IMG/VR virus record: IMGVR_UViG_2534681674_000025
Origin: a virus
Lineage: Duplodnaviria > Heunggongvirae > Uroviricota > Caudoviricetes
Reading direction: 5' to 3' (one strand)
DNA length: 35,774 nt
A program made the translations under genes and the position numbers. Positions within the stretch are counted from its first letter, which is position 1. The number at the start of each line of letters is the position of its first letter. The notes beneath the pieces are model-generated. The model was not told where the DNA came from, searched no databases, and saw only the letters and a program-made list of their open reading frames with translations. Below, piece by piece: positions 2,979 to 35,774 of the stretch.

Positions 2979-3329
2979 ATGAAAAAAAACGCTAATAATC
3001 CATACTCCAAATTTCGTAATGGCGTAGAACGCCATGTACACCACGTCGCTACCAGTGCATCACGTAGTAACAGTCGCTATAACCTGAACGAGACGCACGC
3101 AACACCGGATGGCCACGCTGTAAAACAAATCGGCGAGCATGCCTGGCTGATTGAGAAAGCTGGAATCGTGGTCCACAAATGCCCACGCAATCCGTTTACC
3201 GGAAACCGCATTTTTGCATTGAACTGCGGCGACAATCACTTCGGGCAGGATTTCACATTATACGAAGCACTTCGCACGGTTGATCGTCTGCTTCGCGGGC
3301 AAAGTTTTATTAAACAGGCTGATTTATAA
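2979..3329 (+). CDS. Hypothetical early-operon protein (116 aa)
   Basis: ORF in operon context; no recognisable motif. Confidence 0.55.
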   Translation: MKKNANNPYSKFRNGVERHVHHVATSASRSNSRYNLNETHATPDGHAVKQIGEHAWLIEKAGIVVHKCPRNPFTGNRIFALNCGDNHFGQDFTLYEALRTVDRLLRGQSFIKQADL

Positions 3330-5027: not shown

Positions 5028-7850
5028 ATGACGGCAGAGTACATCAGGGACTGGCAACAACCGCGCCACGCAGTGGGGCGTGAAGGAACGGGGATCCCCG
5101 CTCCTGAATCCGCGCTTTCCTCCTGGCTGGATGCCTACCGGGCAGAGAACGAGCGCCGCCAGGAAATGGCTGATGCGGCGTTCTCCGCCACGCCGCTGGG
5201 CAACCTGATTAATAAAAGCCTGGACGCACAGGAAAAACAGGACAAAACAATCACACTGGCAGGAGACGCCAGAAAACAGGCACGCGGCGCGGTAGATGAG
5301 GCCATGGCCTCACTGCGCCTGCTGCCGTCCTATCTGCGCGATCCGCTTATTCGCCACCTCTCCTTCCTGCGCAAAAAACAGGAAGCCGATCGTCAGAAAG
5401 GAAAAAACGCCAGGCAGGCAGAACGCTATGCGCGTGGGACCCTGCGCAAAATATTCGAACGTCTGGAGCGCACCGATCACCGCTGGCTGACATCGGGTTA
5501 TCGCTCCCTTGCCGGACGTGAACGCCTGGACGATTTGCTTTACCTGCCGCAACTCAACAAACACCAGATACAGACGCTGGCCACCATGACGGCGGCGATG
5601 TTCAGCAGCACCTTCGAAAAACTCTGCGATGGTTTTGGCGCGACTGATGGCGAGCTGACCATGGATGTAACGCTGAAGGCGTATCAGATGCTGGCCCGCA
5701 TGGCGTTACACTTACACGCCATGCCTCCGCATTATGACGCACTGACAACAGACAAAGACCGGAGGCACGAACCGGACACAGAACTGCTGCCGGGCGCAAT
5801 CCTTCGCCTGACCTGTGCGGAATGGTGGAAACGCAAACTGTGGCTGTTACGTTGCGAGTGGAGAGAAGAACAACTCCGCGCCGCCTGTCTGGTTTCCAGA
5901 AAAACATCGCCCTATCTGAGCCAGGACGCGTTAAGCGAGTTTCGCGCACAGCGCGAGAAAACACGCGATTTCCTGAAAAGTTTCATGCTGGAAAATGAAG
6001 ACGGGTTCACGATTGATCTCGAGACGGTGTATTACGCGGGAGTAAGTAACCCGGTTCACCGTAAGGCAGAAATGATGGCCACCATGAAGGGGCTGGAACT
6101 TCTGGCCGAAGCCCGTGGCGACAAAGCGGTGTTTCTGACTGTCACCTGCCCGTCAAAATACCACGCCACAACGGAGAACGGTCATCCGAATCCCAAATGG
6201 AACGGGGCCACAATGCGCGACTCCAGCGATTACCTGGTTAACACGTTTTTTGCGGCGGTCCGCAAAAAACTGAACCGCGACGACCTGCGCTGGTATGGCA
6301 TCCGCACGGTGGAGCCTCATCATGACGGCACCGTGCACTGGCATATGATGGTCTTTGCACATCCGGAAGAAATCGACACCATTGTGTCCCATACCCGCGA
6401 TATTGCCATTCAGGAAGACCGCCACGAGCTGGGCAATGATATTACTCCGCGCTTTAAGGTGGAGTATGTCGACGGCTCAAAAGGCACGCCAACCAGCTAC
6501 ATCGCCACCTACATCGGAAAGAACCTGGACAGCCGCGCCGTGGATGGCATCGACCCGAAAACGGACAAGCCACGCGTGGACCACGAAACCGGAAAATCAA
6601 TGGCCGAGAGCGTGGAACGCGCCATCGGCTGGGCGCGTCTTCACCGCGTCCGCCAGTTCCAGTTCTTTGGTATCCCCCCCCGTCAGGTATGGCGTGAACT
6701 CCGCCGCCTTGCCAGTCAGATGGCCCGCAACCCGGAAGGTCCACAACGTCTGGAAAATGACGCAATGGATACGGTACTCGCTGCCGCTGATGCCGGGTGT
6801 TTTGCCACCTACATTGAGAAACAGGGTGGCGTACTTGTTCCACGCAAAGACTACCTGATTCGCACCGCCTACGACCTCGCAGAAGAGCTGAACGATTACG
6901 GCGAGCAAAGCGTACAGATTTACGGGATCTGGTCGCCACAAATCGGGGAATCTTCCCGCGTGTGCACGCACCCGGATAACTGGAAGCTGGTAAGACGTAA
7001 ACCGGAAGCGGAAGACAGCGCCCGCGAAAATGGTTTTGACCTTCAGGGCGGCCCTGCCGCCCCTTGGACTCGTGGCAATAACTGTCCCCGTGTACAGGAA
7101 ACGGACAACAACGGGACAGAACAGCCGGAAGAACGGCCAGCACCGTGGCCGCAGCTCCCTGACGGCGTTGAAGTGAACGAATGGATGCGCTCACTGAAAC
7201 GGCACGAACGCCGGGCGCTGATGCGTTCGCTTCGTGACAAACAGGCAAAAAACAGCAGTGATGAAGCGCAGAGCTGGACACAGAGCCGCAAACAGCAGCG
7301 GCCTTTGCCTGATAACCACGAATTACTCGCTAAAGAATGGCGGGAGTCTGCTGAATCTCTCGGCCTGCATATCGGTGAACAACAGATGCAGCACCTGTTA
7401 CGGGGCGGCAGTCTGTACGTTGACGGCAGCATCATTGCACCGCAGGGATTTGAAATTGTACGCAAACCGGATACCCGCCTGGACAGCCGAATCACGCAGC
7501 TCTGGCAGCGCCTGAGCCGTAATCATGGCGTAAGCAGCACGGAGATCCGCCATAACCCGGTCGCCAGCTATCTGGCACAGCTGGGGGCATCAGACCCTGA
7601 AGCCGCCGCACGCCTGGCATCCACACTTCAGCAGGACCAGAACACCATGAAAACACCCGTTACCGTGCTTTCTGACATGCTGCGCGCCATCCGCGACGCA
7701 GAGCACGCACAGAGAATCAGTGAAACCACTGAACGCGCCAGCCGCAAAGCAGACCTGCTGCGGGGTGGCCTGACCAGTGGAAACAAAAAACAGACAGAAA
7801 CGGGACTCACAAATCCCGTAAATGAGCAAAAAACGCGCCGCGATATATGA
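5028..7850 (+). CDS. A: Rolling-circle replication initiator endonuclease (P2 gpA family, 940 aa)
   Basis: Large protein at the end of the early operon with an HWHMMVF HUH-type motif typical of the phage GPA family; longer than P2 A (about 760 aa as recalled). Confidence 0.85.
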   Translation: MTAEYIRDWQQPRHAVGREGTGIPAPESALSSWLDAYRAENERRQEMADAAFSATPLGNLINKSLDAQEKQDKTITLAGDARKQARGAVDEAMASLRLLPSYLRDPLIRHLSFLRKKQEADRQKGKNARQAERYARGTLRKIFERLERTDHRWLTSGYRSLAGRERLDDLLYLPQLNKHQIQTLATMTAAMFSSTFEKLCDGFGATDGELTMDVTLKAYQMLARMALHLHAMPPHYDALTTDKDRRHEPDTELLPGAILRLTCAEWWKRKLWLLRCEWREEQLRAACLVSRKTSPYLSQDALSEFRAQREKTRDFLKSFMLENEDGFTIDLETVYYAGVSNPVHRKAEMMATMKGLELLAEARGDKAVFLTVTCPSKYHATTENGHPNPKWNGATMRDSSDYLVNTFFAAVRKKLNRDDLRWYGIRTVEPHHDGTVHWHMMVFAHPEEIDTIVSHTRDIAIQEDRHELGNDITPRFKVEYVDGSKGTPTSYIATYIGKNLDSRAVDGIDPKTDKPRVDHETGKSMAESVERAIGWARLHRVRQFQFFGIPPRQVWRELRRLASQMARNPEGPQRLENDAMDTVLAAADAGCFATYIEKQGGVLVPRKDYLIRTAYDLAEELNDYGEQSVQIYGIWSPQIGESSRVCTHPDNWKLVRRKPEAEDSARENGFDLQGGPAAPWTRGNNCPRVQETDNNGTEQPEERPAPWPQLPDGVEVNEWMRSLKRHERRALMRSLRDKQAKNSSDEAQSWTQSRKQQRPLPDNHELLAKEWRESAESLGLHIGEQQMQHLLRGGSLYVDGSIIAPQGFEIVRKPDTRLDSRITQLWQRLSRNHGVSSTEIRHNPVASYLAQLGASDPEAAARLASTLQQDQNTMKTPVTVLSDMLRAIRDAEHAQRISETTERASRKADLLRGGLTSGNKKQTETGLTNPVNEQKTRRDI

Positions 7851-19372: not shown

Positions 19373-19514
19373 CCCACCCACATGGGGAAACCTCGGAATA
19401 TGGGGCGACCGCCTTCTGGATGCACTGGAAACCTGTAACGCGGATAAACGGGCCATTGCTGAACTGGATAAGAGAATAGCCGAACTGACACACCAGACGG
19501 GAGTAACACAATGA
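19233..19514 (+). CDS. o-spanin lipoprotein (Rz1/LysC-like, 93 aa) overlapping the i-spanin in another frame
   Basis: Lipobox LLTGC after a short signal sequence; proline-rich mature region; overlapping arrangement as in P2 lysB/lysC. Confidence 0.6.
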   Translation: MNAPTLCLTLVLLTGCAGTQNAPRPAPSVRLIPQTLTMPVTPPPFPDPPTWGNLGIWGDRLLDALETCNADKRAIAELDKRIAELTHQTGVTQ

Positions 19515-21391
19515 CCAGTAAGAACTTTGCACTGATTACAGCCATGACACAGGCTGAACTGACCCGGAAAGTGAATGAATATCTTGCGAAGGGGTGGCAT
19601 CTTCAGGGGGACACACGGGTAGCTTACGAGCCCGGCACCCCGTGGTATCTCATGCAGGCCATGGTGGCCGATGGTGCCACCGAGACGCCCTCTGAGCCAT
19701 TACCAAACAACAAGACGCCGGAATGGTACTACGTGGTTGTGCTTGCCGGGCAGTCCAACGGCATGGCTTACGGTGAAGGGCTTCCGTTACCGGATTCTTA
19801 CGATGCTCCGGATCCGCGCATTAAACAGCTGGCGCGCCGCAGTACGGTACCCCCGGGTGGAGAGGGTTGTACGTATAACGACATCATCCCGGCTGACCAC
19901 TGTCTGCATGATGTGCAGGATATGAGTACGCTGAATCATCCGAAGGCGGACCTGAGCAAAGGTCAGTACGGCTGTGTGGGACAGGGACTTCATATTGCCA
20001 AAAAACTACTCCCGTATATCCCGAATAACGCGGGGATCCTGCTGGTACCATGCTGTCGTGGTGGTTCGGCATTCACTCAGGGCGCGGAGGGAACATTCAG
20101 TACGACCACGGGGGCCAGCCAGGATTCGGCGCGCTGGGGTGCGGGTAAGCCGTTATATCAGGACCTGATCGCACGCACCAAAGCGGCATTACAGAAGAAC
20201 CCGAAAAATGTGTTGCTGGCGGTGTGCTGGATGCAGGGCGAATTTGACATGAGCGCTGCCACCTACGCACAGCAACCGGACCTGTTCACGGCCATGCTGA
20301 AGCAGTTCCGTACTGACCTTTCCGGATTTAACGCGCAGTGCCATGGCGGCAGTGCTGCAGTTATACCGTGGATTTGTGGCGACACGACGTATTACTGGAA
20401 AAACACATACGGCACACAGTATGACTCCGTCTACGGCGCGTACAAAAACAGGGAGAGCGACAACGTTTTCTTTGTGCCGTTCATGACCGACGGTAACGGC
20501 AACAACACGCCCACCAACTTACCGGCAGAAGACCCGGATATTGCTGATGCAGGTTATTACGGCGCGCAATCCCGTAGTAATGGTAATTGGGTATCGTCAA
20601 ATCGTCCGACACATTTCAGTTCATGGGCACGCAGGGGCATTATTTCGGATCGCCTGGCAACCGCTATTCTGAACGCAGTTGGTCGAACCAGCGCCTTCAT
20701 CAGCGGTACCGCACCGGAAATCAAACCCTCGCCCGGCGGCGACACTCCATCGGGGCCGTCTGATGGTGACACATCCGTTCGTACAGTCTCCCTGCTGCCG
20801 ACAGCCGGAGAGGCTGCTGCGCAGGGCTGGACCATCACCGGCGGCAGTGTTGCGCTGGAAGATGGTGTGTTTAAGGTTACCAAGCAGAGCAATAAAACTT
20901 GGTCCCTGATGCATCCGGTGGATGACGCAGTCTCCCTGCTGACACGGGGTGGCAGACTGAGCTGTAAGTTTCGACTGTCAGGCGCACTGACCAACAACCA
21001 GTTCGGTCTGGGAATTTATCTGTATACCGATGTAGCGTTACCTGACGTCGTGGCGATGACCGGGACTGGTAACCCGTTCCTGATGTCGTTCTTCACCCAG
21101 ACCACAGACGGCAAACTGAATCTGATGCATCACAAGAAAGCCGGAAACACAAAGTTGGGCGAGTTCGGGAATTACAGTAACGACTGGCAGACGCTGGAGC
21201 TGGTGTTCACCGCCGGCAGTGCCACGGTTACTCCGAAACTGAATGGAGTGGCTGGCCCGGCATTCCAGGTCATAAAAGACAGTCTGACACTGGGGCTGAA
21301 TGCGCTGACGTTAACTGATATCACTAAAAATGCCGCGTACGGCGTCGATATCGGCAGCCTGGTGCTGGAAATCAATAATCCCGCAGTATAA
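19511..21391 (+). CDS. NanS-p-like O-acetyl esterase (DUF1737 + SASA/SGNH hydrolase domains, 626 aa), moron
   Basis: N-terminal DUF1737-like segment (AMTQAELTRKVNEYLAKGWHLQGD); SGNH-type catalytic motif VLAGQSNGMAYGEG; architecture of prophage-encoded NanS-p esterases of enterohaemorrhagic E. coli as recalled. Confidence 0.8.
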   Translation: MTSKNFALITAMTQAELTRKVNEYLAKGWHLQGDTRVAYEPGTPWYLMQAMVADGATETPSEPLPNNKTPEWYYVVVLAGQSNGMAYGEGLPLPDSYDAPDPRIKQLARRSTVPPGGEGCTYNDIIPADHCLHDVQDMSTLNHPKADLSKGQYGCVGQGLHIAKKLLPYIPNNAGILLVPCCRGGSAFTQGAEGTFSTTTGASQDSARWGAGKPLYQDLIARTKAALQKNPKNVLLAVCWMQGEFDMSAATYAQQPDLFTAMLKQFRTDLSGFNAQCHGGSAAVIPWICGDTTYYWKNTYGTQYDSVYGAYKNRESDNVFFVPFMTDGNGNNTPTNLPAEDPDIADAGYYGAQSRSNGNWVSSNRPTHFSSWARRGIISDRLATAILNAVGRTSAFISGTAPEIKPSPGGDTPSGPSDGDTSVRTVSLLPTAGEAAAQGWTITGGSVALEDGVFKVTKQSNKTWSLMHPVDDAVSLLTRGGRLSCKFRLSGALTNNQFGLGIYLYTDVALPDVVAMTGTGNPFLMSFFTQTTDGKLNLMHHKKAGNTKLGEFGNYSNDWQTLELVFTAGSATVTPKLNGVAGPAFQVIKDSLTLGLNALTLTDITKNAAYGVDIGSLVLEINNPAV

Positions 21392-24335: not shown

Positions 24336-24936
24336 TTCACTGTTACCACCATCAGCCAGCAATTTCATGCGTTGTGCCGAAGCCGTCGGAACACGCATTA
24401 CAGACATTCCGGTAGACCTCAACACGCTGTGGTCGCCGGACACCTGCCCGGTGCATCTGCTGCCTTATCTCGCCTGGGCGTTTTCCGTTGACCGCTGGGA
24501 TCGCAACTGGCCGGAAGAGACAAAGCGACAGGTAATTCGTGATGCATGGCTGACACACCGACACAAAGGGACCATCAGCGCACTGCGAAGAGCCGTGGAG
24601 CCTCTCGGCTACCTGATTGAAGTAAAGGAGTGGTGGCAACTCAACGAGGAGCCAGGAACATTTCGCATTGTTGTCGGAGTACTTGATCAGGGCATCACCG
24701 ATGAAATGTATCAGGAACTTGAGCGCCTTATTGCGGATGCAAAACCAGTAAGTCGCCATCTGACGGGGCTGGCGATCAGCCTGAGTGTGAACGGAAAGAT
24801 TTTCGTTGGTACGGGATGCTATCACGGCGATGCCCTGACGGTTTATCCCTACACCCCGGAGTCCATTATTGTCGAAGGGGATTATTTCCCTGCCCCGGCC
24901 ATTCATTTAATTGATAATCTGAGAGTAAACGCATGA
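24328..24936 (+). CDS. I: Baseplate/tail protein, gpI homologue (202 aa)
   Basis: ATG at 24328 overlapping the J stop; position before tail-fibre gene H. Confidence 0.85.
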
Positions 24937-26936
24937 CAGTGAAATACTACGCCATTCTGACTAATCAGGGCGCGGCACGACTGGCTAACGCGACGATGCT
25001 CGGCAGTAAGCTGAATCTGACGCAAATGGCCGTTGGTGATGCAAATGGTGTGTTACCAACACCAGACCCTGCACAAACAAAACTGATTAACCAGAAACGC
25101 ATTGCACCGCTGAATCTTCTGAATGTTGACCCTAACAATCAGAGCCAGATTATTGCGGAGCAAATCATCCCTGAAGACGAGGGAGGATTCTGGATCCGTG
25201 AGATTGGTCTTTATGATGATAAAGGTGTACTCATTGCGGTGGCAAACTGCCCGGAAACGTACAAACCGCAGTTGCAGGAAGGCAGTGGACGCACCCAGAC
25301 TATCCGCATGATTCTGGTTGTCACGAACACCAAAGCCATCACGCTGAAAATCGACCCGTCTGTGGTTCTGGCAACCCGCAAATATGTGGATGATAAAATC
25401 TCAAAGCACGAGCAGTCACGACGTCACCCGGACGCCTCACTGACCGCAAAAGGCTTTGTTCAACTCAGTAGCGCCACCAACAGCGATTCAGAAACGCTGG
25501 CGGCAACACCAAAGGCGGTAAAGGCAGCCTATGACCTTGCTAACGGGAAATATACCGCACAGGACGCCACGACAGCACAAAAAGGCATTGTCCAGCTCAG
25601 TAGCGCCACCAACAGCGATTCAGAAACGCTGGCGGCAACACCAAAGGCGGTAAAGGCAGCCTATGACCTTGCTAACGGGAAATATACCGCACAGGACGCC
25701 ACGACGGCACAAAAAGGAATTGTCCAGCTCAGTAGTGCAACCAACAGCACATCTGAAACGCTTGCTGCAACACCGAAAGCAGTGAAAGCAGCTAATGACA
25801 ATGCGAATGGTCGGGTACCTTCTGCCCGTAAGGTGAATGGTAAGGCGCTTTCGGCGGATATAACACTGACGCCGAAAGATATTGGTACGCTTAACTCAAC
25901 AACAATGTCATTCAGCGGTGGTGCTGGTTGGTTCAAATTAGCAACGGTAACCATGCCACAGGCGAGTTCTGTTGTTTCAATTACGTTGATTGGTGGCGCT
26001 GGATTTAACGTCGGTTCACCTCAACAGGCAGGTATATCTGAACTTGTTTTGCGTGCAGGTAATGGTAATCCGAAGGGGATTACTGGTGCTTTATGGCAGC
26101 GCACATCGACAGGGTTTACAAATTTTGCCTGGGTCAATACATCTGGTGATACTTACGATATTTACGTTGCAATCGGAAATTATGCGACTGGTGTAAATAT
26201 TCAATGGGATTATACCAGTAATGCCAGCGTGACGATTCATACGTCACCAGCATATTCTGCTAATAAGCCGGAAGGGTTAACGGACGGTACAGTTTATTCA
26301 CTCTATACGCCATCAGAGCAGTTTTATCCGCCTGGCGCACCAATCCCGTGGCCATCGGATACCGTTCCGTCTGGTTATGCCCTGATGCAGGGGCAGACTT
26401 TTGACAAATCTGCCTACCCGAAACTTGCAGCCGCTTATCCGTCAGGCGTGATCCCTGATATGCGTGGCTGGACGATTAAGGGCAAACCCGCCAGTGGCCG
26501 GGCCGTATTGTCTCAGGAACAGGACGGCATTAAATCGCACACCCACAGCGCCAGCGCATCCAATACGGATTTGGGGACGAAAACCACATCGTCGTTTGAT
26601 TACGGTACTAAAACGACCAGTTCATTTGATTACGGCACAAAAACCACAAATAGCGCAGGAGCTCATTCACACAATATACCTGTTGGTCACACTGGCGCGG
26701 GGAATGGTGTATCAGCCGGTTATAACGCTGCGTTAGGTACTGGTACCACGTCGAGCGCAGGAGAGCATGCTCACAATGTATATATCGGTGCCCATAACCA
26801 CACTATCGGCATTGGTGCTCATGCCCATTCTGTCATTATTGGTCCCCACGGACACACCATCACCGTTAATGCTACGGGGAACGCAGAAAACACCGTAAAA
26901 AACATCGCATTTAACTATATTGTGAGGCTTGCATAA
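24933..26936 (+). CDS. H: Tail fibre protein, gpH homologue (667 aa) with internal tandem repeats and His-rich C-terminal domain
   Basis: Conserved N-terminus [20 protein letters not shown]...; three 44-aa collar repeats ([23 protein letters not shown]); C-terminal [10 protein letters not shown] repeats and HxH motifs. Confidence 0.9.
25455..25810 (+). repeat. Tandem 132-bp coding repeats inside H (two near-identical copies plus a diverged third)
   Basis: Copy 1 at 25455-25586 and copy 2 at 25587-25718 are nearly identical at DNA level; copy 3 (25719-25810) is diverged. Confidence 0.85.
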
Positions 26937-27514
26937 TGACATTCAGAATGAGTGAACAATCACGGACCATAAAAATTTATAATCTACTGACCGGAACCAA
27001 TGAGTTTATTGGTGAAGGTGATGCATACATTTCACCTCATACAGGTCTGCCTGCAAACAGTACCGATATTGCCCCGCCAGATATTCCGGCTGGCTTCGTG
27101 GCCGTTTTCAACAGTGATGAGGCATCGTGGCATCTCGTTGAAGACCATCGGGGTAAAACGGTTTATGACGTGGCATCAGGGGACTCGTTATTTATTTCTG
27201 AACTCGGTCCGTTACCGGAAAATGTTACCTGGTTGTCGCCGTATGGAGAGTATCAGAAGTGGAACGGCACATCCTGGGTGAAAGATGCAGAAGCAGAAAA
27301 ACTATTTCGGATAAGGGAGGCGGAAGAAACAAAAAACAGCCTGATGCAGGTAGCCAGTGAGCATATTGCACCACTTCAGGATGCTATAGATTTAGATATT
27401 GCGACGGAGGAAGAGACATCGTTACTGGCTGCATGGAAGACATATCGAGTATTGTTGCATCGTGTTGATACAACAGTAGCAGCAGATATTGAGTGGCCAG
27501 TCGCCCCACAATAA
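26936..27514 (+). CDS. G: Tail fibre assembly chaperone, gpG/Tfa homologue (192 aa)
   Basis: Directly downstream of H with TAATG overlap; size near P2 gpG. Confidence 0.85.
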
Positions 27515-27520
27515 AAAGAA

Positions 27521-27550
27521 AAAGCCATCGATAGAAATATCGATGGCTTT
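27521..27550. terminator. Bidirectional rho-independent terminator between convergent G and acetyltransferase genes
   Basis: Perfect 13-bp stem AAAGCCATCGATA / TATCGATGGCTTT with GAAA loop; T-rich tail on the minus strand. Confidence 0.7.
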
Positions 27551-27557
27551 ATGTACT

Positions 27558-28130
27558 CTATTTATACAATACAGCACCGCTCTTTTTAGTTATATATGTG
27601 CAGTTCGATGGTATATCTTTATTTATAAAAGACATTGCACCTATTTTTACATTATCCCCAATTTTACGGGATAATCCAATGATGCAACAATTAGCTCCGA
27701 TATCAACGTTGCTACCAATTTTTACTCTTGAACCAGGTATGTCACCATCTATCTGTCCAATGGTCGTATTCTGTCGTAACACCAGATTTTCACCAGCATC
27801 AACAGCAAAATGAACAACAATTCCAGCATGATGGGGAATTGTTAACCCTTTTCCAATATTTGCGCCCAATCCAATTTCGCAACCAAATTTGTTAATTATT
27901 TTACTGTTTAACTTCTTGGCTGCTTTCTTATGTAATTTATTACCATTAATATACATTTCGTTAGCCAACCGCCACCAGAAAAGGAAATTCCTGTTACGCT
28001 GCTTTTTCTCTCTTAAAAGCCTCCAGATATCCATACGTTTCCGCCGAATTACTTCATGTTTCCAGAAGTTTTTTAAATTAGTAGAGTTCCCAAATAAAAC
28101 AAAGTGAATTGCCATTAGGTAAGACAGCAC
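27558..28130 (-). CDS. Hexapeptide-repeat (left-handed beta-helix) acetyltransferase, CysE/NodL/NeuO-like, in an AT-rich island (190 aa from GTG 28130; longest ORF to 28163)
   Basis: Hexapeptide repeats (IGANIGKGLTIPHHAGIVV, IGSNVDIGANCCIIG, IGDNVKIGAMSFI); RBS AAGGAG 6 nt before GTG; strongly AT-rich relative to flanking phage genes. Confidence 0.8.
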   Translation of the reverse strand: MLSYLMAIHFVLFGNSTNLKNFWKHEVIRRKRMDIWRLLREKKQRNRNFLFWWRLANEMYINGNKLHKKAAKKLNSKIINKFGCEIGLGANIGKGLTIPHHAGIVVHFAVDAGENLVLRQNTTIGQIDGDIPGSRVKIGSNVDIGANCCIIGLSRKIGDNVKIGAMSFINKDIPSNCTYITKKSGAVLYK

Positions 28131-28286
28131 GATAATCTCCTTAATTATTATTTCAGACCACACATGTTATAAGGTTAAGAGATTATAAAATCCTGTTGTT
28201 TATTATTCAAAAACAATTTTCTGAGAAGGACATACAACAGCAAGTCGCCAGTCACCTTCATCAGGAAATTGGCGACATACGTTAAA

Positions 28287-28781
28287 TCAGAGCAGCCCCT
28301 TAACTGAGCTGGCCGCGCTATTAAGGGATGATGTCACCTTATCTTTGAAGCCGGACAACATATCGCTGAACGATGAGGATTGCAGGCGCTCCCGCAAATC
28401 CTCATCACAGCGTTCAAGAGTCAGTGAAAATTCTATCTTTTTCGCCTTACCGTAGCGATCAAACTCGGAACGGGTCGTATTCGTTTCAGTCAGTACATAC
28501 ATGCCGTAAATCTGCCCGACACCATCAATCAGAGGCCAGGGCCGTCCTGTATATGCCTGCGTGGTCAGCAATGAAAGCGACACTTCGCCACCTGTAATTT
28601 CAGGATAAAGCACGCCGGAAAGCACAATGAGATCATCACCTGCACCGATATACTGCCAGCTTGCTGAACGGTTAACGCGTTCATTTTTCACATGCCGCCA
28701 GCTTTTGTTTTGCTGTAACTGCTGATGCGGCAATGTGCGCAGCTCAAAAACAAACATGCCGTAGATCATCATCATGACCAT
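28287..28781 (-). CDS. U: Tail protein U homologue (164 aa)
   Basis: SWRH...LSGVLYPEITGGEVSLSLL...RSEF matches gpU as recalled; follows the tape-measure gene. Confidence 0.85.
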   Translation of the reverse strand: MVMMMIYGMFVFELRTLPHQQLQQNKSWRHVKNERVNRSASWQYIGAGDDLIVLSGVLYPEITGGEVSLSLLTTQAYTGRPWPLIDGVGQIYGMYVLTETNTTRSEFDRYGKAKKIEFSLTLERCDEDLRERLQSSSFSDMLSGFKDKVTSSLNSAASSVKGLL

Positions 28782-28787
28782 GACTCC

Positions 28788-31631
28788 TCAATCTTTATCG
28801 TAAAAACTGCCACGTCCGGCACGGGCGCGCCGTTCCATCTCTGCCCTGACCATTTCACCGACCAGTTTCGCCAGTTCGCGGGGATTCTGCGTAACAACGT
28901 TATGCAGATGAACATGAATTTCACCGCAAAATCCGGAGACAGCAGGCTCCCGGTTACGGGAAGTTGCAGGAACTGATGCCACTGGCGATCGTATGGCCTC
29001 CGCCACCGGGCGGGAGCTGGCCGCAACAACAGGGACCAGCGCCGGAGGCAGCGGAGCCGAGACCACGGGTGTGATATTAATTGCGGGGGCAGGCTTACTG
29101 ACCTGCGCAATCTTCCGCTCCTGCCACTCCCCACGAACAGCAAGTGCGCGGGGCAGGTTCTTAAAGACAATATCGCCGGGGCCAATGCGTTTTTTCGTCT
29201 CATCAACCAGCTTACCTGTGTTATCAGCAATTTTGCTGAGTCTGCGTAGCGTCCCGGTATTGCTGTCTGTGAGCGGTTTGTTGTCTTTGGGTTTATCACC
29301 TCCGGTGCCATTGCCATTTTCCACAGGCTTCGGCGGATTGATTTTCGCCAGGTCCCCCTGAAGCAAGGCAACCTTGTCCTGAAGAATGGCCGCACGCTGT
29401 GCGTCTTCGATTTTCTTGCGCGCCCTTTCCGCTTCATCCGGAAGGACACCAAGTTTTTCAAGTATCCACGCCAGCGTATCCAGTAGCATTTTTGCAGGTG
29501 TCAGAACAAGTTGTAACGCACCGCCAAGAACGTTACCGAATACCTCGCCAGCACTGGTGCATTTATCCAGCGTTTCCTTGCTGGACTCCATCGGTGACAA
29601 CAGCGATTTAAACCAGTTAAACACCAGGCTGATCCCGCTTCCGATTGCGTCAAAAACAGGGCCAAACCGTTCAAAGGTTTCACGCAACGGGGTCAGCCTT
29701 TCCATAATCCCGCTGAACACCCCGGCAAAAAATGCCCTGATGGGATCCCAGTATTTCCAGATAAGAACGGCAGCTCCGGCAAGCGCAGCCACGATAAGAC
29801 CAACCGGACTGAACAGCGCCCCGATAGCGCCACCCAGCAAAGAAACAGAACCCGTCACCATTCCCCACAGCGCAGGCAACACCCTGATGACATTCATTGA
29901 CCGGGTAAGAATGTCGAAACCAAGACGCAAGGTGGCCAGCTTCCCGTAAAGCACCCCAATAACCAGCGACAACGAGCCAATCGTTGCAGTCATTGCCAGC
30001 AACGCACCGCCTGCTATCAGTAGCTGGCGCGTCAGTACCGGATGGGCCTGCGCCAGCGAGGTGATTTTTTCAAGCACCCGCGTGAGCCACTGCGTGACAG
30101 AACGCAGCGGACCGTCAACCAGATCACTGATGCGAATACGAAGACCTTCCCATGCGCTGTCGAGATTTTTCAGGTCTCCATCAAGATTATCGGCCATTAC
30201 TTTTGCAACGCGATCGGCCTCTCCCCTTGCCCCCTGCAATTCTCTGGTCAGTTTTTGCAGTTCTCCTGAACCAGCCGCCGCAACAAGCGTCTGCAAACCA
30301 ACGAACGCCTCTTCTCCGGCGATGTCCTTGAAGAAGGAGACCTGGTCCACCTGTCCGTATTTTTGTGTCGCCTTATAGAGATCAAGCAGCACATCCTCCA
30401 TCGGGCGCATTTTGCCTCTGGCGTCAGCAACTGACACCCCCAGCTCTTTCAGTGCATCAGCCGCAGCTTTTGGCGGTGATGCAAGGCGGGACAGACTTGC
30501 GCGCATGGCCGTACCAGCATCGCTTCCGCGAAGACCATTATTGGCAAGCATCCCGGCCATGGCCGCCGCTTCTTCAAGACTGATACCAAGTTTTGCGGCA
30601 ACCGGACCGGTATACTTCATGGTTTCGCCCAGCGCGCGTAAATCAGTATTGGTCCGGGTGAATGCTGCTGTCAGCGTATCGCCAACCCGGTCCATTTGAT
30701 CGGCTGTCAGGTTGAACTGTGTGAGGATATTGGAGCCTATATCAGCCGTCTCGCCGAGTTCGACGCCACCTGCCAGCGCCATATTAAGAACACCGGGCAA
30801 TGCGGCCTGAATGGCCTGCGGAGTAAAACCAGCCATTGCCAGAAAGCTCTGCCCACTGGCGGCATCACTCGCAGTAAACTGTGTTTCAGAACCAAGTTTT
30901 AACGCCTGCTCACGCAGCGCCTTAAACTGCGGGCTGTTTTTGTCGATTCGCGTCAGTGCCTGAACGCGGGACATCTCTTTGCCGAACCCGATCGCAGGCT
31001 GCAAAAAACGCCCGGCGGCATAGCCGCCAGCCGCTGCAGCACCAATTGCCAGCGCACCACCTGTTTTCAGTTTTCCCGCGGTTTCCTGCGCGCGCGAATA
31101 CCGCTCACGCGCCCGCGTTACACGCGCAAGCGCCTGCCGTTCGCGTTCAAGCTGGTTGTTGTACTGTTCGGTGCGTCTGATGGCCTGCTGGATGGTGTTA
31201 TCGCTGCCTGTCAGGGAAATGCCGTGGCGTTTCAGCTCTCCGCCAAGCTCCCGCATTTTCTGAATTTCCCGTGTGCGCGATTCATTCAGGCGTTCAAGCC
31301 GGGTGCTTAACTGCTGCATCAGCTTTTGTTGTTTTTCGCTGAGCACTGTACCCGTGCGTTGTAACTGATTAAGGGCGTTAAGCTGGCGTCGTGCTTTCAC
31401 GATGCCAGCATCCGCTTTACTGACAGCGTCACGGGCGCGCTCAAATGAACGCGCCTGACGCTCGAGATTTTTGATCGCCCCCTGCGTTCGCTGGATGGAG
31501 TCACCAAACTGCCCCATCAGGCGGCGGGCGTTTTCGGCAGGCCGGGTCAGCCTGTCAACGGCGCTGAAAGCGACCCGGATATCAAGAGTCTTCATTATCT
31601 GCATTCCCGCTGCGAAGTGCCGCCCGCTCAC
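28788..31631 (-). CDS. T: Tail tape measure protein, gpT homologue (start uncertain; 947 aa from longest ORF)
   Basis: Large alpha-helical, Ala/Gly-rich protein between the tail chaperone and U genes. Confidence 0.9.
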   Translation of the reverse strand: MSGRHFAAGMQIMKTLDIRVAFSAVDRLTRPAENARRLMGQFGDSIQRTQGAIKNLERQARSFERARDAVSKADAGIVKARRQLNALNQLQRTGTVLSEKQQKLMQQLSTRLERLNESRTREIQKMRELGGELKRHGISLTGSDNTIQQAIRRTEQYNNQLERERQALARVTRARERYSRAQETAGKLKTGGALAIGAAAAGGYAAGRFLQPAIGFGKEMSRVQALTRIDKNSPQFKALREQALKLGSETQFTASDAASGQSFLAMAGFTPQAIQAALPGVLNMALAGGVELGETADIGSNILTQFNLTADQMDRVGDTLTAAFTRTNTDLRALGETMKYTGPVAAKLGISLEEAAAMAGMLANNGLRGSDAGTAMRASLSRLASPPKAAADALKELGVSVADARGKMRPMEDVLLDLYKATQKYGQVDQVSFFKDIAGEEAFVGLQTLVAAAGSGELQKLTRELQGARGEADRVAKVMADNLDGDLKNLDSAWEGLRIRISDLVDGPLRSVTQWLTRVLEKITSLAQAHPVLTRQLLIAGGALLAMTATIGSLSLVIGVLYGKLATLRLGFDILTRSMNVIRVLPALWGMVTGSVSLLGGAIGALFSPVGLIVAALAGAAVLIWKYWDPIRAFFAGVFSGIMERLTPLRETFERFGPVFDAIGSGISLVFNWFKSLLSPMESSKETLDKCTSAGEVFGNVLGGALQLVLTPAKMLLDTLAWILEKLGVLPDEAERARKKIEDAQRAAILQDKVALLQGDLAKINPPKPVENGNGTGGDKPKDNKPLTDSNTGTLRRLSKIADNTGKLVDETKKRIGPGDIVFKNLPRALAVRGEWQERKIAQVSKPAPAINITPVVSAPLPPALVPVVAASSRPVAEAIRSPVASVPATSRNREPAVSGFCGEIHVHLHNVVTQNPRELAKLVGEMVRAEMERRARAGRGSFYDKD

Positions 31632-32120
31632 GCCAGCTAACCACTTCGCCGGGCGTCATCATGAAGATTTCGGCGGGCGACCAGTTAAAAATGGCGGCAA
31701 TATCCGCCACCAGATCTTCGATGTGCTCAAAGCACACCAGAGTGATTACGCTGCCGTCTCCTGCACGCTCTTCGCGCCAGAGTCTGGCTCGCTCATAAAA
31801 TTTACAGCCACTGCGCACAACTGAATAAAATCGCGTGACGACATTTTTTTAATCATCACTTCATCCAGTCGTGGCGAGGTCACGCGAGGCAACAGCGTAA
31901 ACATGGTATCCGCTTTCAGATTCAGCACATCAGACAGCGACAGACCACGCAGGGATCCAGCCTGCTCAATAGCCCCGGTGATCTCCACATACGTGATTTT
32001 TTCGCCACCACGCTCAATTGGTCGGGTCAGTTTTACGCCACGTTCGACAGCCATATCCTCACCTGCCGTCACATCATCCGCCACGGTGTTATTCCGGGTT
32101 TCAGTATCGATGTCTTTCAT
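31582..32120 (-). CDS. gpE+E' fusion product made by programmed -1 ribosomal frameshift (E frame to about 31845, then -1 frame to 31585)
   Basis: -1 frame ORF (31582-31848) overlaps the E 3' end; the shift must occur on the A7 run because a TAA lies in the -1 frame immediately upstream. Confidence 0.6.
31746..32120 (-). CDS. E: Tail assembly chaperone gpE homologue (likely start at 32054, about 102 aa)
   Basis: Position between the tube and tape-measure genes; contains a slippery A-run near its 3' end with an overlapping -1 frame ORF. Confidence 0.8.
   Translation of the reverse strand: MKDIDTETRNNTVADDVTAGEDMAVERGVKLTRPIERGGEKITYVEITGAIEQAGSLRGLSLSDVLNLKADTMFTLLPRVTSPRLDEVMIKKMSSRDFIQLCAVAVNFMSEPDSGAKSVQETAA
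31844..31850 (-). promoter_or_regulatory. Slippery sequence (A7 on the coding strand) for the E/E' -1 frameshift
   Basis: AAAAAAA within codons ATT AAA AAA ATG of E; conserved tail-chaperone frameshift logic. Confidence 0.55.
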
Positions 32121-32175
32121 CAGTTGTCTCCTTTTCAGTCAAAGGCGACGCACTGCGCCGCCTGCATATTACTTA

Positions 32176-32688
32176 TCAGCCAAGCCCAAGCGCGGAACGG
32201 ATACGGTCAGGCACAATGTCCTTGCCGTCCTTCCGGTAGATGTGGTTCAACAGGTCGATTTCCCACAGCGGGCGATCGTTAACGCTCAGCTTGTAGTAGG
32301 TGTTTTTGACAGCGTAAGTGTGTGATGTGGCTTCGCCCTGTTTGGCTTCCCCCATATCAATTTCCGTCACACGCCCGCGCATCTCGATTTCATACAGATC
32401 GCTTTCTGCATCGGTGTAGTATTCACCCGCAAAACGCAGCAGCGTGCCGTCAATCGTGCCGCCATATTTAAGGAACAGCGCACGAACAGCTCCCCCCATG
32501 ACAAAACTCGCATCAAGCGCGGAGTCGTCCAGACCGAGATCAATACTTACCGCCCCCATCATGCCACCACCACGATAGCTGTCGGTTTTGCGCGTCAGTT
32601 TGGGCGGCGTGACGGATGTCACTTTACCCACTTCGTTTTCACCATCCACAAACAACGTAAAAAAGCGAAGATGTTTTGGTACAGCCAT
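32176..32688 (-). CDS. FII: Tail tube protein, gpFII homologue (170 aa)
   Basis: Size matches P2 FII (172 aa); directly downstream of the sheath gene. Confidence 0.9.
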   Translation of the reverse strand: MAVPKHLRFFTLFVDGENEVGKVTSVTPPKLTRKTDSYRGGGMMGAVSIDLGLDDSALDASFVMGGAVRALFLKYGGTIDGTLLRFAGEYYTDAESDLYEIEMRGRVTEIDMGEAKQGEATSHTYAVKNTYYKLSVNDRPLWEIDLLNHIYRKDGKDIVPDRIRSALGLG

Positions 32689-33872
32689 CAGGCACCTCCC
32701 AGCACCGCAAATGCGGGACCAAAGAATTCATCAGTAAACGTCTGGTAAAGCTCCATGTCTTCCAGCGGGGGAACAGGCGTATATTTGTAGCGAATACGCA
32801 CACGTCCCTGACGTAAATTCGTGGTGCCGTTATCCACCACGTCATACCAGCACTCCGCACCAATCAGTTTCCCGGCAGTAACCAGCGAATCCAGTTTTGC
32901 CCTGATGGCGCTGATAACATCCTTCACATTCGCAGGTGTCAGTGGACTGTCGATGGTTTCAAACTGCGCTTCCGCAATTGAATCAGCCAGCACCTGTGCG
33001 GTTCGGGTATACACCTCAAAGATGTAGGCGTTCGTTTCCGGTGTGCGGTTGCCCCAGAAGCGGAACCCGTTGCGACGAATAATGGTCGTGATTTCTTTGT
33101 TGTTGAGGCTATTGGCATCGCTGTCTTCGGCCTGCAACGACCAGAACACATGCCTGGACATTCCCAGCACATTTTTAACCGGAACGTTGGACAGCGATTT
33201 GTGCCAGCCCTGCTCATGGTCAATGTACGCACGAAGGCCGCACGCATAAGCAGGCGCGGGGAACGTTTCGTTTTTGCCACTTTTCGGGTTGTAGGCGATG
33301 AAGTCCGGCCATAAGAGCATCACCTCACGTTCGTTGAATTTCTGGCGGTAGGTAATCGCCTCAGCCATCGTGTTACAGCCGTGACATGAGGCATACACAA
33401 ACGCGCGCAGTTTACCTGCAATCACGCACAGGGATTTTGTTACAGCCTCCGTGTCCAGCTCCGGCGCGGCCAGAATACGCGGACGGTATCCGATGCTTTC
33501 ATCCTGCTCTGCAACAAGCAGCGCATACATCCCCGTATAGCTGCCGTCATCCTCAGAACCACCGATAACCAGTTGATCCTGCGTCTTTCCGTCTTCTTCT
33601 TTGTGTTCAGCCACGCGAACGACGATCACCTTTGTGCTCACCTGGTCTGCGATGGCCTTAAGCGCACGATAAAGCGTCCCCGTTGTCCCGCATTTTCCCA
33701 GCACGTCATTGACGCGGGTCAGCAGTGTGGGCTTATTCAGCGGGAACAGCTTCGCGTCCGCATCATCCGCCGTTGCCACGATACCGATAACGCTGGAATC
33801 AACATCGTTAATCGCTGTTACCAGGTCGGTATTTTCCGTAACACGGGCACCATGAAAACGAGTTTCACTCAT
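32688..33872 (-). CDS. FI: Contractile tail sheath protein, gpFI homologue (394 aa)
   Basis: FPLNKP, KLRAF.Y, WPDF, EQGWHK.LSNV, IRR.GFRFWGNRT, YTPVPPLE motifs match P2 FI as recalled. Confidence 0.92.
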   Translation of the reverse strand: MSETRFHGARVTENTDLVTAINDVDSSVIGIVATADDADAKLFPLNKPTLLTRVNDVLGKCGTTGTLYRALKAIADQVSTKVIVVRVAEHKEEDGKTQDQLVIGGSEDDGSYTGMYALLVAEQDESIGYRPRILAAPELDTEAVTKSLCVIAGKLRAFVYASCHGCNTMAEAITYRQKFNEREVMLLWPDFIAYNPKSGKNETFPAPAYACGLRAYIDHEQGWHKSLSNVPVKNVLGMSRHVFWSLQAEDSDANSLNNKEITTIIRRNGFRFWGNRTPETNAYIFEVYTRTAQVLADSIAEAQFETIDSPLTPANVKDVISAIRAKLDSLVTAGKLIGAECWYDVVDNGTTNLRQGRVRIRYKYTPVPPLEDMELYQTFTDEFFGPAFAVLGGA

Positions 33873-34029
33873 AGCTTCAGCCCCTTGTATCCGTTAAATG
33901 ATTCGGCAACAATCATCACCCACCACGTGCGTAATCTCACCCCTGCGCCGTTCTCCCGCCACGGCGACAACAAAAAGCAGTAACCCCCTCCGCACGCACA
34001 TGCGACCATGCCGCACAGGGAGGGAACAG
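33873..34029. promoter_or_regulatory. Divergent promoter region between FI (-) and D (+) with candidate late-activator site
   Basis: GTTCT-N12-ACAACAAAAAG at 33950-33977, same motif, spacing and orientation as the site between P and O (14605-14631). Confidence 0.4.
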
Positions 34030-35139
34030 ATGACCGATACCACCATGCAATTGCTCAGTCAGGGCACAGACCCCGTGAAAATGCCGGATTTTGATATTCT
34101 CGCGGAGGGTAAAACGCTGTCAGGCGTGGCAGAGCGCCTGATGAGCCTGTCACTGACCGACAACCGGGGATTTGAGGCGGACCAGCTCACCATCACGCTG
34201 GATGATGCGGATGGTCAGTTGCAGCTACCGCCACGGGGCGCGCGCCTGACGGTTCTCATTGGCTGGAAAGGAGAACCGCTGACAGAAAAAGGCACTTACA
34301 TTGTTGATGAAATCGCTCACGAAGGACCGCCGGACAGGCTGACTGTTTCAGCCAGAAGCGCAGATTTTCGGGATGAATTTAACGTTAAACGTGAGGTGTC
34401 CTGGCATGATGTGACCGTTGAGCGCGTGGTATCTGCCATCGCTCATCGGTACGGTCTGAAACCGCAAATCAGCGAAATGCTGATGGATATCGAAATCGAC
34501 CACGCCGACCAGACCGAAGAAAGCGATATGTCCTTCCTTACGCGCATGGCGGAAATGCTGGGCGCAATCACCACGGTAAAAAGCGGCAATCTGTTATTCA
34601 TCATGCCAGGTGGTGGCGTGAACGCACAGGGCCAGCCGTTGCCCTCGTTCGCCATTACACGCAGCAGCGGCGATCGCCATCAGTTCCGTATTGCTGACCG
34701 CGAGGCGTATACGGGGGTACGCGCCTACTGGCTTGATCTTAATTACGGGAAAAAGAAAAAAGTCAGCGTGAAACGCCGTAAACCGCCAAAACCCAAAAAG
34801 GAGAAAAGCAGCAGCCGTGAAGGTGATTATATGGAAGGCGCGGAAGGCAATGTGTTTGTGTTACGCAAGACTTATCAGAACGAGCAGGCAGCAAGACGCG
34901 CAGCGGCGGCAAAGTGGCAGCAGCTACAACGCGGAGCCGCATCATTCTCCATCACGCTGGCATGTGGTCGTGCAGAACTCTACCCCGAAATGCATGGCAC
35001 GGTAACAGGATTTAAAAGCGAGATTGATAATCAGGACTGGATTATTGCAAAAGCCGAGCACACCATCGATAACAGCGGCTTTACCACGCAGCTTGAGCTT
35101 GAGGCAAAAATCTCGGAATGGATAGCAGAAACAGAGTGA
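34030..35139 (+). CDS. D: Tail protein D homologue (369 aa)
   Basis: AGGGAGG RBS before ATG 34030; size near P2 gpD (387 aa); followed by ogr. Confidence 0.88.
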   Translation: MTDTTMQLLSQGTDPVKMPDFDILAEGKTLSGVAERLMSLSLTDNRGFEADQLTITLDDADGQLQLPPRGARLTVLIGWKGEPLTEKGTYIVDEIAHEGPPDRLTVSARSADFRDEFNVKREVSWHDVTVERVVSAIAHRYGLKPQISEMLMDIEIDHADQTEESDMSFLTRMAEMLGAITTVKSGNLLFIMPGGGVNAQGQPLPSFAITRSSGDRHQFRIADREAYTGVRAYWLDLNYGKKKKVSVKRRKPPKPKKEKSSSREGDYMEGAEGNVFVLRKTYQNEQAARRAAAAKWQQLQRGAASFSITLACGRAELYPEMHGTVTGFKSEIDNQDWIIAKAEHTIDNSGFTTQLELEAKISEWIAETE

Positions 35140-35181
35140 GCAACTTAGAATAGCAGCAGCACCACGTTAAGGGAGGTCGCT

Positions 35182-35442
35182 ATGTTCCGTTGTCCGCTTT
35201 GTGGCGCATCTGCCCGTATCCGCACCAGTCGTCCTGAAAATGATTCAAACACCGTGCGGCAAAAGTATTACCAGTGTAACAACCTGGAATGCGGCGTATG
35301 CTTCTCAACACTGGAAGCTTTCCATAAATTCACATCAAAACACACCTCCGGCGTTCACTCTTCAGAAGGTATCCCGTGGCATGAGCTGCCAGCTTCACAC
35401 AGGGGAAACAATCAGATGAGTTTGCCTTTACCTCAGAATTAA
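35182..35442 (+). CDS. ogr: Ogr/Delta-family zinc-finger late transcription activator (86 aa)
   Basis: MFRCPLCGASARIRTSR...YYQCNNLECGVCF parallels P2 Ogr (MFHCPLC...HQCQNVNCSATF) with a CxxC...CxxC zinc finger. Confidence 0.88.
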   Translation: MFRCPLCGASARIRTSRPENDSNTVRQKYYQCNNLECGVCFSTLEAFHKFTSKHTSGVHSSEGIPWHELPASHRGNNQMSLPLPQN

Positions 35443-35633
35443 CAGGCAGAATTGCCGGAGTAACAAAAAAGCGATAGATTACGCGCGGGTGCCTTTCGGC
35501 TGATGGTCGGAGGGAATACCCGAAGGCCAGATGTGGAAAGGCCCCGGAAAACATTTCTGTTTAACCGAGGCCCTAACATATCTACCTTAAGCAAGTGATA
35601 GGTTAGCGCCTCTCCAACAAAGGAGCAAGCGCT

Positions 35634-35774
35634 ATGTCGCAAAAATCGCTTACGGCCATCACGTTCTGCGTGACGGTAATCCTCATCATCTGGATGCTAC
35701 ACGGTTCGCTGTGTGAAATACGGATGAGCTTCTGGGGAGCGGAGTTTGCGGCGTTCTTACAGTGTAAGCAGTAA
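35634..35774 (+). CDS. hok: Hok/Gef-family type I toxin (46 aa: MSQKSLTAITFCVTVILIIWMLHGSLCEIRMSFWGAEFAAFLQCKQ)
   Basis: N-terminal transmembrane helix followed by the family signature SLCEIR...E.AAF; AAGGAG RBS 8 nt upstream; below the ORF-track cut-off, read from the sequence; stop codon is the last 3 bases of the window. Confidence 0.75.
   Translation: MSQKSLTAITFCVTVILIIWMLHGSLCEIRMSFWGAEFAAFLQCKQ

Follow-up and report, generated by a model that had tools for sequence, protein, structure and literature searches.

The inverted tail gene block of a P88-like prophage is very likely the standard gene order of a large Enterobacterales clade of P2-family phages

Introduction

In the annotated record of phage P2, the genes FI, FII, E/E', T, U, D, and ogr all run in the same direction as H and G, and the run from FI to ogr is driven by the promoter PF, with a mapped start at 17626. 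The FI-to-D layout of phages 186 and Fels-2 is the same and likewise co-directional. The RefSeq record of P88 (Xuanwuvirus P88, NC_026014) is organized differently, with U, T, E', E, FII, and FI on the minus strand (27600-33175) and D on the plus strand at 33333. P88 and Citrobacter phage PhiSM are plaque-forming temperate phages (PMC5285337, PMC6456863), and the P88-type layout is therefore fully functional. Here we analyze the IMG/VR virus record IMGVR_UViG_2534681674_000025 (Caudoviricetes), a stretch of 35,774 nucleotides termed the window, in which an earlier note had described the block from the tail sheath gene FI to the tail gene U (28287-33872) as inverted relative to P2. We conclude that the order G> <U-T-E'/E-FII-FI / D> ogr> is very likely the standard and vertically inherited one in a large clade of Enterobacterales P2-family phages, in which a single ancient inversion of FI to U probably split the late tail genes into two divergent units, both most likely transcribed from one Ogr-dependent bidirectional promoter.

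Results

The window is a P88-like prophage carrying the FI-to-U block in inverted orientation

Genes were called from an open reading frame (ORF) map combined with PHROG and Pfam profile scans of the window proteins (Table 1), which bore out the gene calls, coordinates, and strands given earlier. By its gene content, the window is a complete P2-family prophage. Homologues of FI, FII, E/E', T, U, and D are present in the internal order of P2 (PHROG/Pfam scans and tblastn against P2; 33-49% identity), and all genes of the FI-to-U block are intact. When the window proteins were placed onto P2 with tblastn, the two genomes were collinear throughout, FI to U alone being on the opposite strand. The inversion that the earlier note had reported relative to P2 is thus real, and it holds relative to 186 and Fels-2 as well. 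The operon structure of P2, in which FI to D are co-directional with H and G and U is coupled to D, is not found in the window, where FI to U lie opposite to H, G, and D.

We then compared the right part of the window with other phages. Megablast of 26900-35774 against a phage collection yielded one continuous alignment, from 28281 to 35774, with several Xuanwuvirus phages at 93-96% identity, including phage 500465-2, Citrobacter PhiSM, Xuanwuvirus P884B11, and P88; for P88, 84% of the 8.9-kb query aligned at 93.6% identity. Most of the window proteins, structural as well as replicative, are 94-99% identical to those of P88, versus 31-65% to those of P2. Judged by this alignment and by the protein identities, the window is a P88-like prophage (Peduoviridae, probably Xuanwuvirus) and not a rearranged relative of P2.

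The individual proteins of the block agree with this assignment. GpU is 97.6% identical to P88 gpU, itself encoded on the minus strand, and gpT is 94% identical to P88 gpT; translation of gpT probably starts at 31595 (ATG), so that T overlaps E' at the end of the latter and measures 2808 nt, as annotated in P88. GpFI shares 98.7% identity with its P88 counterpart and 45% with P2 FI; for gpFII, the values are 97% (P88) and 43% (P2 FII). The PHROG_55 family that gpFII matches is labeled "head closure" in the library, but the protein nonetheless corresponds to P2 FII. On the other side of the FI/D junction, the ATG at 34030 is kept as the start of gpD in 136 of 137 relatives and was preferred to the upstream start at 33898 in the ORF list. 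Ogr is 97.7% identical to an ORF that is unannotated in P88.

Table 1. Features called or predicted in the window, in coordinate order
Feature	Coordinates	Strand	Basis and remarks
Integrase	1-1002	-	ORF map, PHROG/Pfam
Replication gene A	5028-7850		ORF map, PHROG/Pfam
Q, P		-	ORF map, PHROG/Pfam
O, N, M, L, lysis genes, R, S, V, W, J, I		+	ORF map, PHROG/Pfam
gpH	24933-26936	+	PHROG/Pfam
gpG	26936-27514	+	PHROG/Pfam
Strong intrinsic terminator between convergent G and acetyltransferase genes	27521-27550	-	13-bp stem and U run, z = -5.5
Serine/hexapeptide acetyltransferase (moron)	27558-28130	-	PHROG_2154; Hexapep 23.9 bits, just under the Pfam curated cut-off of 27
Predicted sigma-70-like promoter, TTGAAT-17-TATAAT	28210-28182	-	Consensus scan, 10/12 matches
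Hairpin just 3' of the U stop, then UUGCUGUUGU	28244-28276	-	z = -3.8 for a 106-nt stretch
gpU, tail protein, last gene of the inverted block	28287-28781	-	PHROG_76, PF06995
gpT, tape measure	28788-31631 (longest ORF)	-	PHROG_28
E' extension, -1 frame	31582-31803	-	Heptamer A_AAT_TTT at 31803-31797
gpE, tail assembly chaperone	31746-32120	-	PHROG_103; weak PF10109 match below the Pfam curated cut-off
gpFII, tail tube	32176-32688	-	PHROG_55
gpFI, tail sheath, first gene of the inverted block	32688-33872	-	PHROG_23
FI/D intergenic region, predicted bidirectional late promoter	33873-34029 (157 bp)		Aligned homologous spacers
-10-like hexamer GATGAT, FI-to-U transcript	33912-33917	-	Predicted start ~33905
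Predicted Ogr-type activator site, GTTCT-N12-ACAAC	33950-33971	+	TCT 33952-33954, ACA 33967-33969, center 33960.5
-10-like hexamer GACCAT, D-ogr transcript	34004-34009	+	Predicted start ~34016
gpD, baseplate hub/late control D protein	34030-35139	+	PHROG_52, PF05954
Ogr/Delta-type zinc-finger late activator	35182-35442	+	PF04606 at 5e-14

The inverted layout is widespread and defines one clade

We looked into the distribution of the two layouts by classifying with tblastn the surroundings of gpD in 80 loci from GTDB species representatives and 80 loci from IMG/VR with a gpD alignment; these are the best-scoring 80 loci of each collection, and the resulting counts are not prevalences. The P88-type layout, with FI divergent from and immediately upstream of D, was found in 146 of the 166 surveyed gpD loci. 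Another 19 were of the P2 type, with U coupled to D, and one was truncated. The split is clean at the protein level, since gpD is 61-100% identical to that of the window in P88-type loci and 49-53% in P2-type loci. Midpoint-rooted neighbor-joining trees were computed for gpD and for FI; in each, the P88-type sequences group into a single clade that contains no others, and the identities of gpD and FI to the window co-vary (r = 0.98). The arrangement occurs in at least 25 genera of Enterobacterales, with hosts that include Salmonella, Klebsiella, Enterobacter, Citrobacter, Serratia, Erwinia, Pantoea, and Pectobacterium and also Brenneria, Edwardsiella, Yersinia, Hafnia, Xenorhabdus, Photorhabdus, Providencia, and Morganella.

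Annotated reference phages of other genera have the same order as the window, namely Salmonella phage SEN5 (Senquatrovirus) and Klebsiella phages Kp4871-3 (Reginaelenavirus) and Kp4846-1 (Reipivirus). The earlier note had implied that the arrangement was unusual and had itself pointed to the reference genomes of the clade as the place where this view could fail. It does fail there, as P88, SEN5, and the Reginaelenavirus and Reipivirus phages carry this orientation as their standard. As four genera of Peduoviridae recognized by the International Committee on Taxonomy of Viruses (ICTV) share the inverted layout, the operon structure of P2 is not a defining trait of the family. More distant relatives (Pseudomonas D14A, Ralstonia YO006_4, Burkholderia SBP15, and Mannheimia 1152AP) are of the P2 type. 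Because the P88-type loci are monophyletic and these Pseudomonas, Ralstonia, Burkholderia, and Mannheimia relatives have the P2-type order, the inversion appears to be single, old, and derived. The most parsimonious scenario would be one inversion of FI to U in the ancestor of the clade, followed by vertical inheritance, which would have split a P2-type F operon (FI-FII-E-T-U-D) into a leftward FI-to-U unit and a rightward D(-ogr) unit.

Two side observations came out of the survey. One P88-type prophage, with a gpD 95-98% identical to that of the present E. coli prophage, lies on a 226-kb contig of a Firmicute-labeled assembly (locus L007, NZ_JBQPOM010000071.1, labeled Vagococcus sp. WN89Y) and probably reflects contamination of the assembly or mislabeling. 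In this locus and in L100, L101, L102, L107, and L157, all close relatives, ogr lies 2.6-5.2 kb 3' of the D start, compared to 1.15 kb in the window; the interval between D and ogr thus seems to receive cargo insertions and to constitute a second variable slot, besides the one between G and U described below.

Artefact, invertible switch, and module replacement

The difference from P2 is the only basis for regarding the inversion as an assembly artefact or as a private rearrangement of one, perhaps decaying, prophage. The genes of the block are all intact, the same junctions occur in the isolated phages P88, PhiSM, SEN5, and others, and the layout recurs across the host genera listed above, so that we consider this explanation to have practically no chance of being correct. 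Independent complete assemblies also support both junctions, for which the earlier note had looked to sequencing reads: the FI/D junction (33500-34400) was found, at a coverage of at least 80%, in 1358 of 5426 complete E. coli genomes (∼25%), and the junction from G through the acetyltransferase gene to U (26900-28900) was found in 495 complete E. coli genomes. A synthetic junction fusing the 3' end of U to D, as in the P2 orientation, gave no full-length match and was present in 0 of the 1415 complete E. coli genomes that carry both pieces. These last counts bear equally on the proposal that a Gin/Cin-type enzyme, like the invertase encoded beside gpU in P88, flips the block by site-specific inversion, with both orientations coexisting. 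P88 and Fels-2 do encode a DNA invertase beside their tail-fiber genes, but the window encodes none, 28287-33872 is devoid of flanking inverted repeats, and a single orientation is seen in all 146 members of the clade. Gin/Cin-type invertases are known to act on tail-fiber segments, and the P88 enzyme adjoins alternative tail-fiber genes. An invertible block is thus as negligible a prospect as an artefact. With 1358 of 5426 genomes carrying the FI/D junction and none the opposite orientation, misassembly and an invertible switch are both excluded: the orientation is fixed and is neither artefactual nor phase variable, in line with the stability that the earlier note had attributed to it and with the identical layout of P88 and SEN5.

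Horizontal replacement, with an FI-to-U module acquired from a different phage lineage in reverse orientation, deserves more attention, as the tail-fiber and cargo regions beside the block are clearly mosaic in the P2 family and as the C terminus of U and the N terminus of D differ from those of P2-type phages. Nevertheless, a foreign module is hard to reconcile with the tight covariation of FI, inside the block, and gpD, outside it, two proteins that also divide the clades identically. Identity to the P2 counterparts is moreover about equal for FI, FII, U, and D (43-49%), which fits a shared history. We regard such a replacement as very unlikely and infer that the event was an inversion in situ.

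The FI/D spacer resembles a bidirectional late promoter

The inverted layout places FI and D back to back around a 157-bp spacer, and the earlier note had proposed that 33950-33977 belongs to a functional divergent late promoter region. Comparative evidence supports this proposal well, with a late-activator-type site at this position. TGT-N12-ACA is the late-activator motif of the P2 family, and the sites that the P2 record lists for the activator agree with it. We aligned 137 distinct homologous FI/D spacers, and found no gaps between 33905 and 34009. In the left half of the predicted site, T33952 is present in 134 and T33954 in all 137 spacers, with either G (64 spacers) or C (73) at position 33953; in the right half, the five columns of ACAAC (33967-33971) are conserved in 137, 133, 137, 130, and 127 spacers, respectively. 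A strict GTTNN-N12-ACAAC pattern matches only 55 of the 137 spacers, and the core that is conserved column by column is T-S-T-N12-ACAAC.

The -10-like hexamers on the two strands are each 46 bp from the center of the site, and the predicted starts are each 55.5 bp from it. Positions 2, 5, and 6 (A, A, and T) of the minus-strand hexamer (GAtnAT) are invariant in the 137 spacers; in the plus-strand hexamer (RAYCAT), A34005 is found in 111 and A34008 and T34009 each in 120. The same geometry is known from the divergent PP and PO promoters of P2, where a shared activator site (3063-3080, center 3071.5) lies 55.5 bp from each of the mapped starts at 3016 and 3127. The P/O spacer of the window itself contains GTTCT-N12-ACAAC at 14605-14626 with -10-like hexamers 46-47 bp on either side. 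Exactly one activator motif was found in each of the divergent spacers scanned in Kp4871-3 and Kp4846-1 (both spacers) and in SEN5 (the P/O spacer alone). Another exact match of the motif, inside gene T (29510-29531), was dismissed as a chance occurrence, the window-wide count being no higher than in shuffled sequences. The phage encodes an Ogr/Delta zinc-finger activator (Table 1), as an Ogr-dependent promoter requires. From sequence, we infer that Ogr binds at 33950-33971 and that transcripts begin near 33905 on the minus strand and near 34016 on the plus strand; the two late units would then most likely share one bidirectional, Ogr-dependent promoter located in the FI/D spacer.

On the right side of this spacer, D is uncoupled from the FI-to-U unit, as the earlier note had stated; it lies on the opposite strand and has its own Shine-Dalgarno sequence and a conserved ATG. 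The first ∼18 residues of gpD have no counterpart in P2-type gpD, and alignments begin at residue 19. As ogr starts 42 bp after D, a late D-ogr transcript is plausible by analogy with P2, where ogr closes the F operon and uses the same terminator. Elsewhere in the late region, we observed that the start of V (22507) overlaps the end of S, as S and V do in P88, and that no activator motif precedes V. P88-type phages therefore seem to be devoid of a separate PV promoter; in place of the PP/PO, PV, and PF promoters of P2, their late genes appear to be served by two divergent promoter regions, P/O and FI/D.

Several points weigh against a single ancient inversion with a bidirectional promoter. P2-type phages are under-sampled in our survey, and the gpD and FI trees are simple and midpoint rooted. 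A search of 26800-35774 for inverted repeats found none at the breakpoints (28164-28286 and 33873-34029), so no trace of the mechanism is left. The binding of Ogr and the two starts are predictions. The left half-site of the window reads TCT, one mismatch away from the consensus TGT, which 64 of the 137 relatives match exactly. Both -10-like hexamers agree with TATAAT at only three of six positions and are weak evidence by themselves, although a poor match is expected of activator-dependent promoters. We still consider the ancient inversion in a vertically inheriting clade to be very probable.

The E/E' frameshift site is only partly preserved

Two overlapping ORFs lie between the tube and tape-measure genes, one of them E and the other open in the -1 frame from 31818 to 31582. 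The earlier note had stated that the E/E' frameshift site is preserved. This holds for the -1 ORF, which is intact and encodes a product homologous to the E' tail of P2; an E' tail in the -1 frame is found in 153 of 156 related loci. It is less certain for the slippery sequence itself. The heptamer T_TTT_TTG, present in P2, P88, and most loci, is destroyed in the window by a T>A change and reads TTTTATG. The site is GTAAATTTTATGAGC in the window versus GTAAATTTTTTGAGC in P88, and the slip region reads GTA AAT TTT ATG in the window and in at least nine near-identical loci. Only A_AAT_TTT, 3 nt upstream, is left as a candidate site: it fits X_XXY_YYZ, overlaps the lost heptamer, and leads into the same -1 frame. 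The E gene of the window is 75% identical to that of P88.

The acetyltransferase gene between G and U looks like an independent cargo gene

The gap between G and U is a variable slot. In P88, it is filled by an invertase gene and alternative tail-fiber genes; in many relatives, G and U are directly convergent; in the window, it contains an acetyltransferase gene. We set the start of this gene at the GTG at 28130 and abandoned the start at 28163 of the ORF list, since a Shine-Dalgarno sequence (AAGGAG, 28143-28138) lies 6 nt before this GTG and since the Prokaryotic Genome Annotation Pipeline (PGAP) calls exactly this coding sequence, with the same start, in E. coli 55989.

The earlier note had made the acetyltransferase the distal gene of the tail operon, reached by transcripts that continue from the FI-to-U block. 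The gene is indeed on the same strand, 156 bp 3' of U, and the hairpin that follows U, at which the FI-to-U transcript may terminate weakly, is backed by a U tract so modest that some read-through may pass. Against this, the gene has its own sigma-70-like promoter, with 10 of 12 consensus matches, a strong Shine-Dalgarno sequence, and its own terminator, and its G+C content is ∼0.41 versus ∼0.55 for the FI-to-U block. It is absent from P88, where a convergent gene follows U, and from P2, and it lies outside the P88 backbone. Finally, a cassette made of tfa and the acetyltransferase gene is common to phages JL22 and Ro157c2YLVW, unrelated phages in which no F operon lies upstream of the pair. 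When the upstream region of the gene (28100-28290) was compared with the phage collection, no match was found, and distant mode brought up none either. Taken together, these features do not support the distal-gene model, which we hold to be improbable, albeit less so than a module replacement. From its sequence context, the acetyltransferase gene rather looks like a self-contained moron that arrived with a tail-fiber assembly cassette, and it may serve in lysogenic conversion, for example, by acetylating the O antigen or a receptor.

Other features of the prophage

Compared to P88, the region 1-2455 of the window has a swapped integration/immunity module on a conserved structural backbone. In E. 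coli 55989, the same type of prophage sits between yecA and a tRNA-Leu/Cys/Gly cluster. A gene for a ParM-type plasmid segregation ATPase (7927-8886, plus strand), followed by a partition protein gene, is found 3' of the replication gene A; these genes are also present in P88 and in E. coli 55989 and are unusual equipment for an integrating P2-family prophage. A Hok/Gef-family toxin gene (35634-35774, plus strand) is at the right end of the window, 3' of ogr, and a counterpart occupies this position in P88.

Between the lysis genes and R, the plus strand contains an ORF of 626 amino acids (19511-21391) with DUF1737, SASA (sialate O-acetylesterase), and DUF6645 domains, an architecture that we take to be that of the NanS-p esterases of Shiga toxin (Stx) prophages. 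This NanS-like ORF is absent from P88 and P2 and present in E. coli 55989, and it may be cargo riding in the late operon. The E. coli 55989 prophage differs in gpD, which is a full-length protein of 369 amino acids in the window; there (locus L168, 36244-37097), PGAP annotates a shortened coding sequence of 801 nt with a partial pseudogene fragment upstream, and this copy may carry a lesion.

Discussion

Our analysis shows that the gene order of P2 is not universal in its family, as a large clade of Enterobacterales prophages has a tail-core operon that is split and inverted. The arrangement can already be read from public data: at least four ICTV genera have annotated references that show it, and hundreds of complete E. 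coli genomes carry it. The parts of the literature on P88, PhiSM, SEN4/5, Serratia PP4, and Burkholderia P2-like phages that a keyword search brought up contained no comment on the inversion, which seems to be undiscussed rather than unknown and visible only in deposited annotations. For annotators, the practical consequence is that this layout should not be flagged as a rearrangement or a misassembly.

We propose that the inversion created a second compact bidirectional Ogr-dependent promoter, with one site serving two RNA polymerases at ±55.5 bp in a geometry that is constant throughout the clade, and that it placed D and ogr in a short Ogr-activated late unit, a positive-feedback loop set apart from the bulk of the tail genes. 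The chances of this proposal being right or wrong seem to us evenly balanced, and within the reach of our search, the literature held no discussion of such a rewiring or feedback. If it is true, the P88-type and P2-type clades would represent a natural paired experiment on the splitting and rewiring of an activator-dependent operon. Because its spacing is free of gaps in 137 distinct sequences, the FI/D spacer, which resembles a second copy of the P/O design of P2, offers a clean and easily testable model for bidirectional activation.

Comparison with known systems

The F operon of P2 (FI-FII-E-E'-T-U-D, promoter PF) and the J operon of 186 match the window in their seven tail genes and in how these are ordered among themselves, and they share with it a -1 frameshift chaperone pair and an ogr/B gene 3' of D. 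The identity of the tail-module proteins to those of P2 is that given above for the homologous genes. In P2 and 186, a single operon running in the direction of H and G comprises all seven genes, and the stop of U overlaps the start of D; in the window, where FI to U are inverted, D is served by a promoter side and a Shine-Dalgarno sequence of its own and begins with a new N terminus of ∼18 residues. P2 has no divergent promoter at FI/D, and the closest likeness to the FI/D spacer is its PP/PO region, with one dyad site (TGT-N12-CCA; T(G/C)T-N12-ACA in the window) at 55.5 bp from each divergent start. The starts of PP and PO were mapped experimentally, whereas those of the FI/D spacer are predicted from conservation and geometry.

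SEN4/SEN5 (Senquatrovirus) and the Klebsiella phages of Reginaelenavirus and Reipivirus share the order G> <U...FI / D> ogr with the window, but they belong to other genera, and their gpD and FI proteins are 63-73% and 55-71% identical to those of the window, respectively. The closest systems are P88 and Citrobacter PhiSM, in which U-T-E'-E-FII-FI / D-ogr has an order and orientation identical to those of the window; 28281-35774 aligns to them in one piece at 93.6-95.7% nucleotide identity, and the 157-bp FI/D spacer differs at one base. The window departs from P88 in its integrase (39% identical) and immunity genes, in its tail-fiber and cargo regions, in the additional NanS-like esterase gene, in the loss of the T_TTT_TTG heptamer, and in having the acetyltransferase moron where P88 has its invertase and alternative tail-fiber genes.

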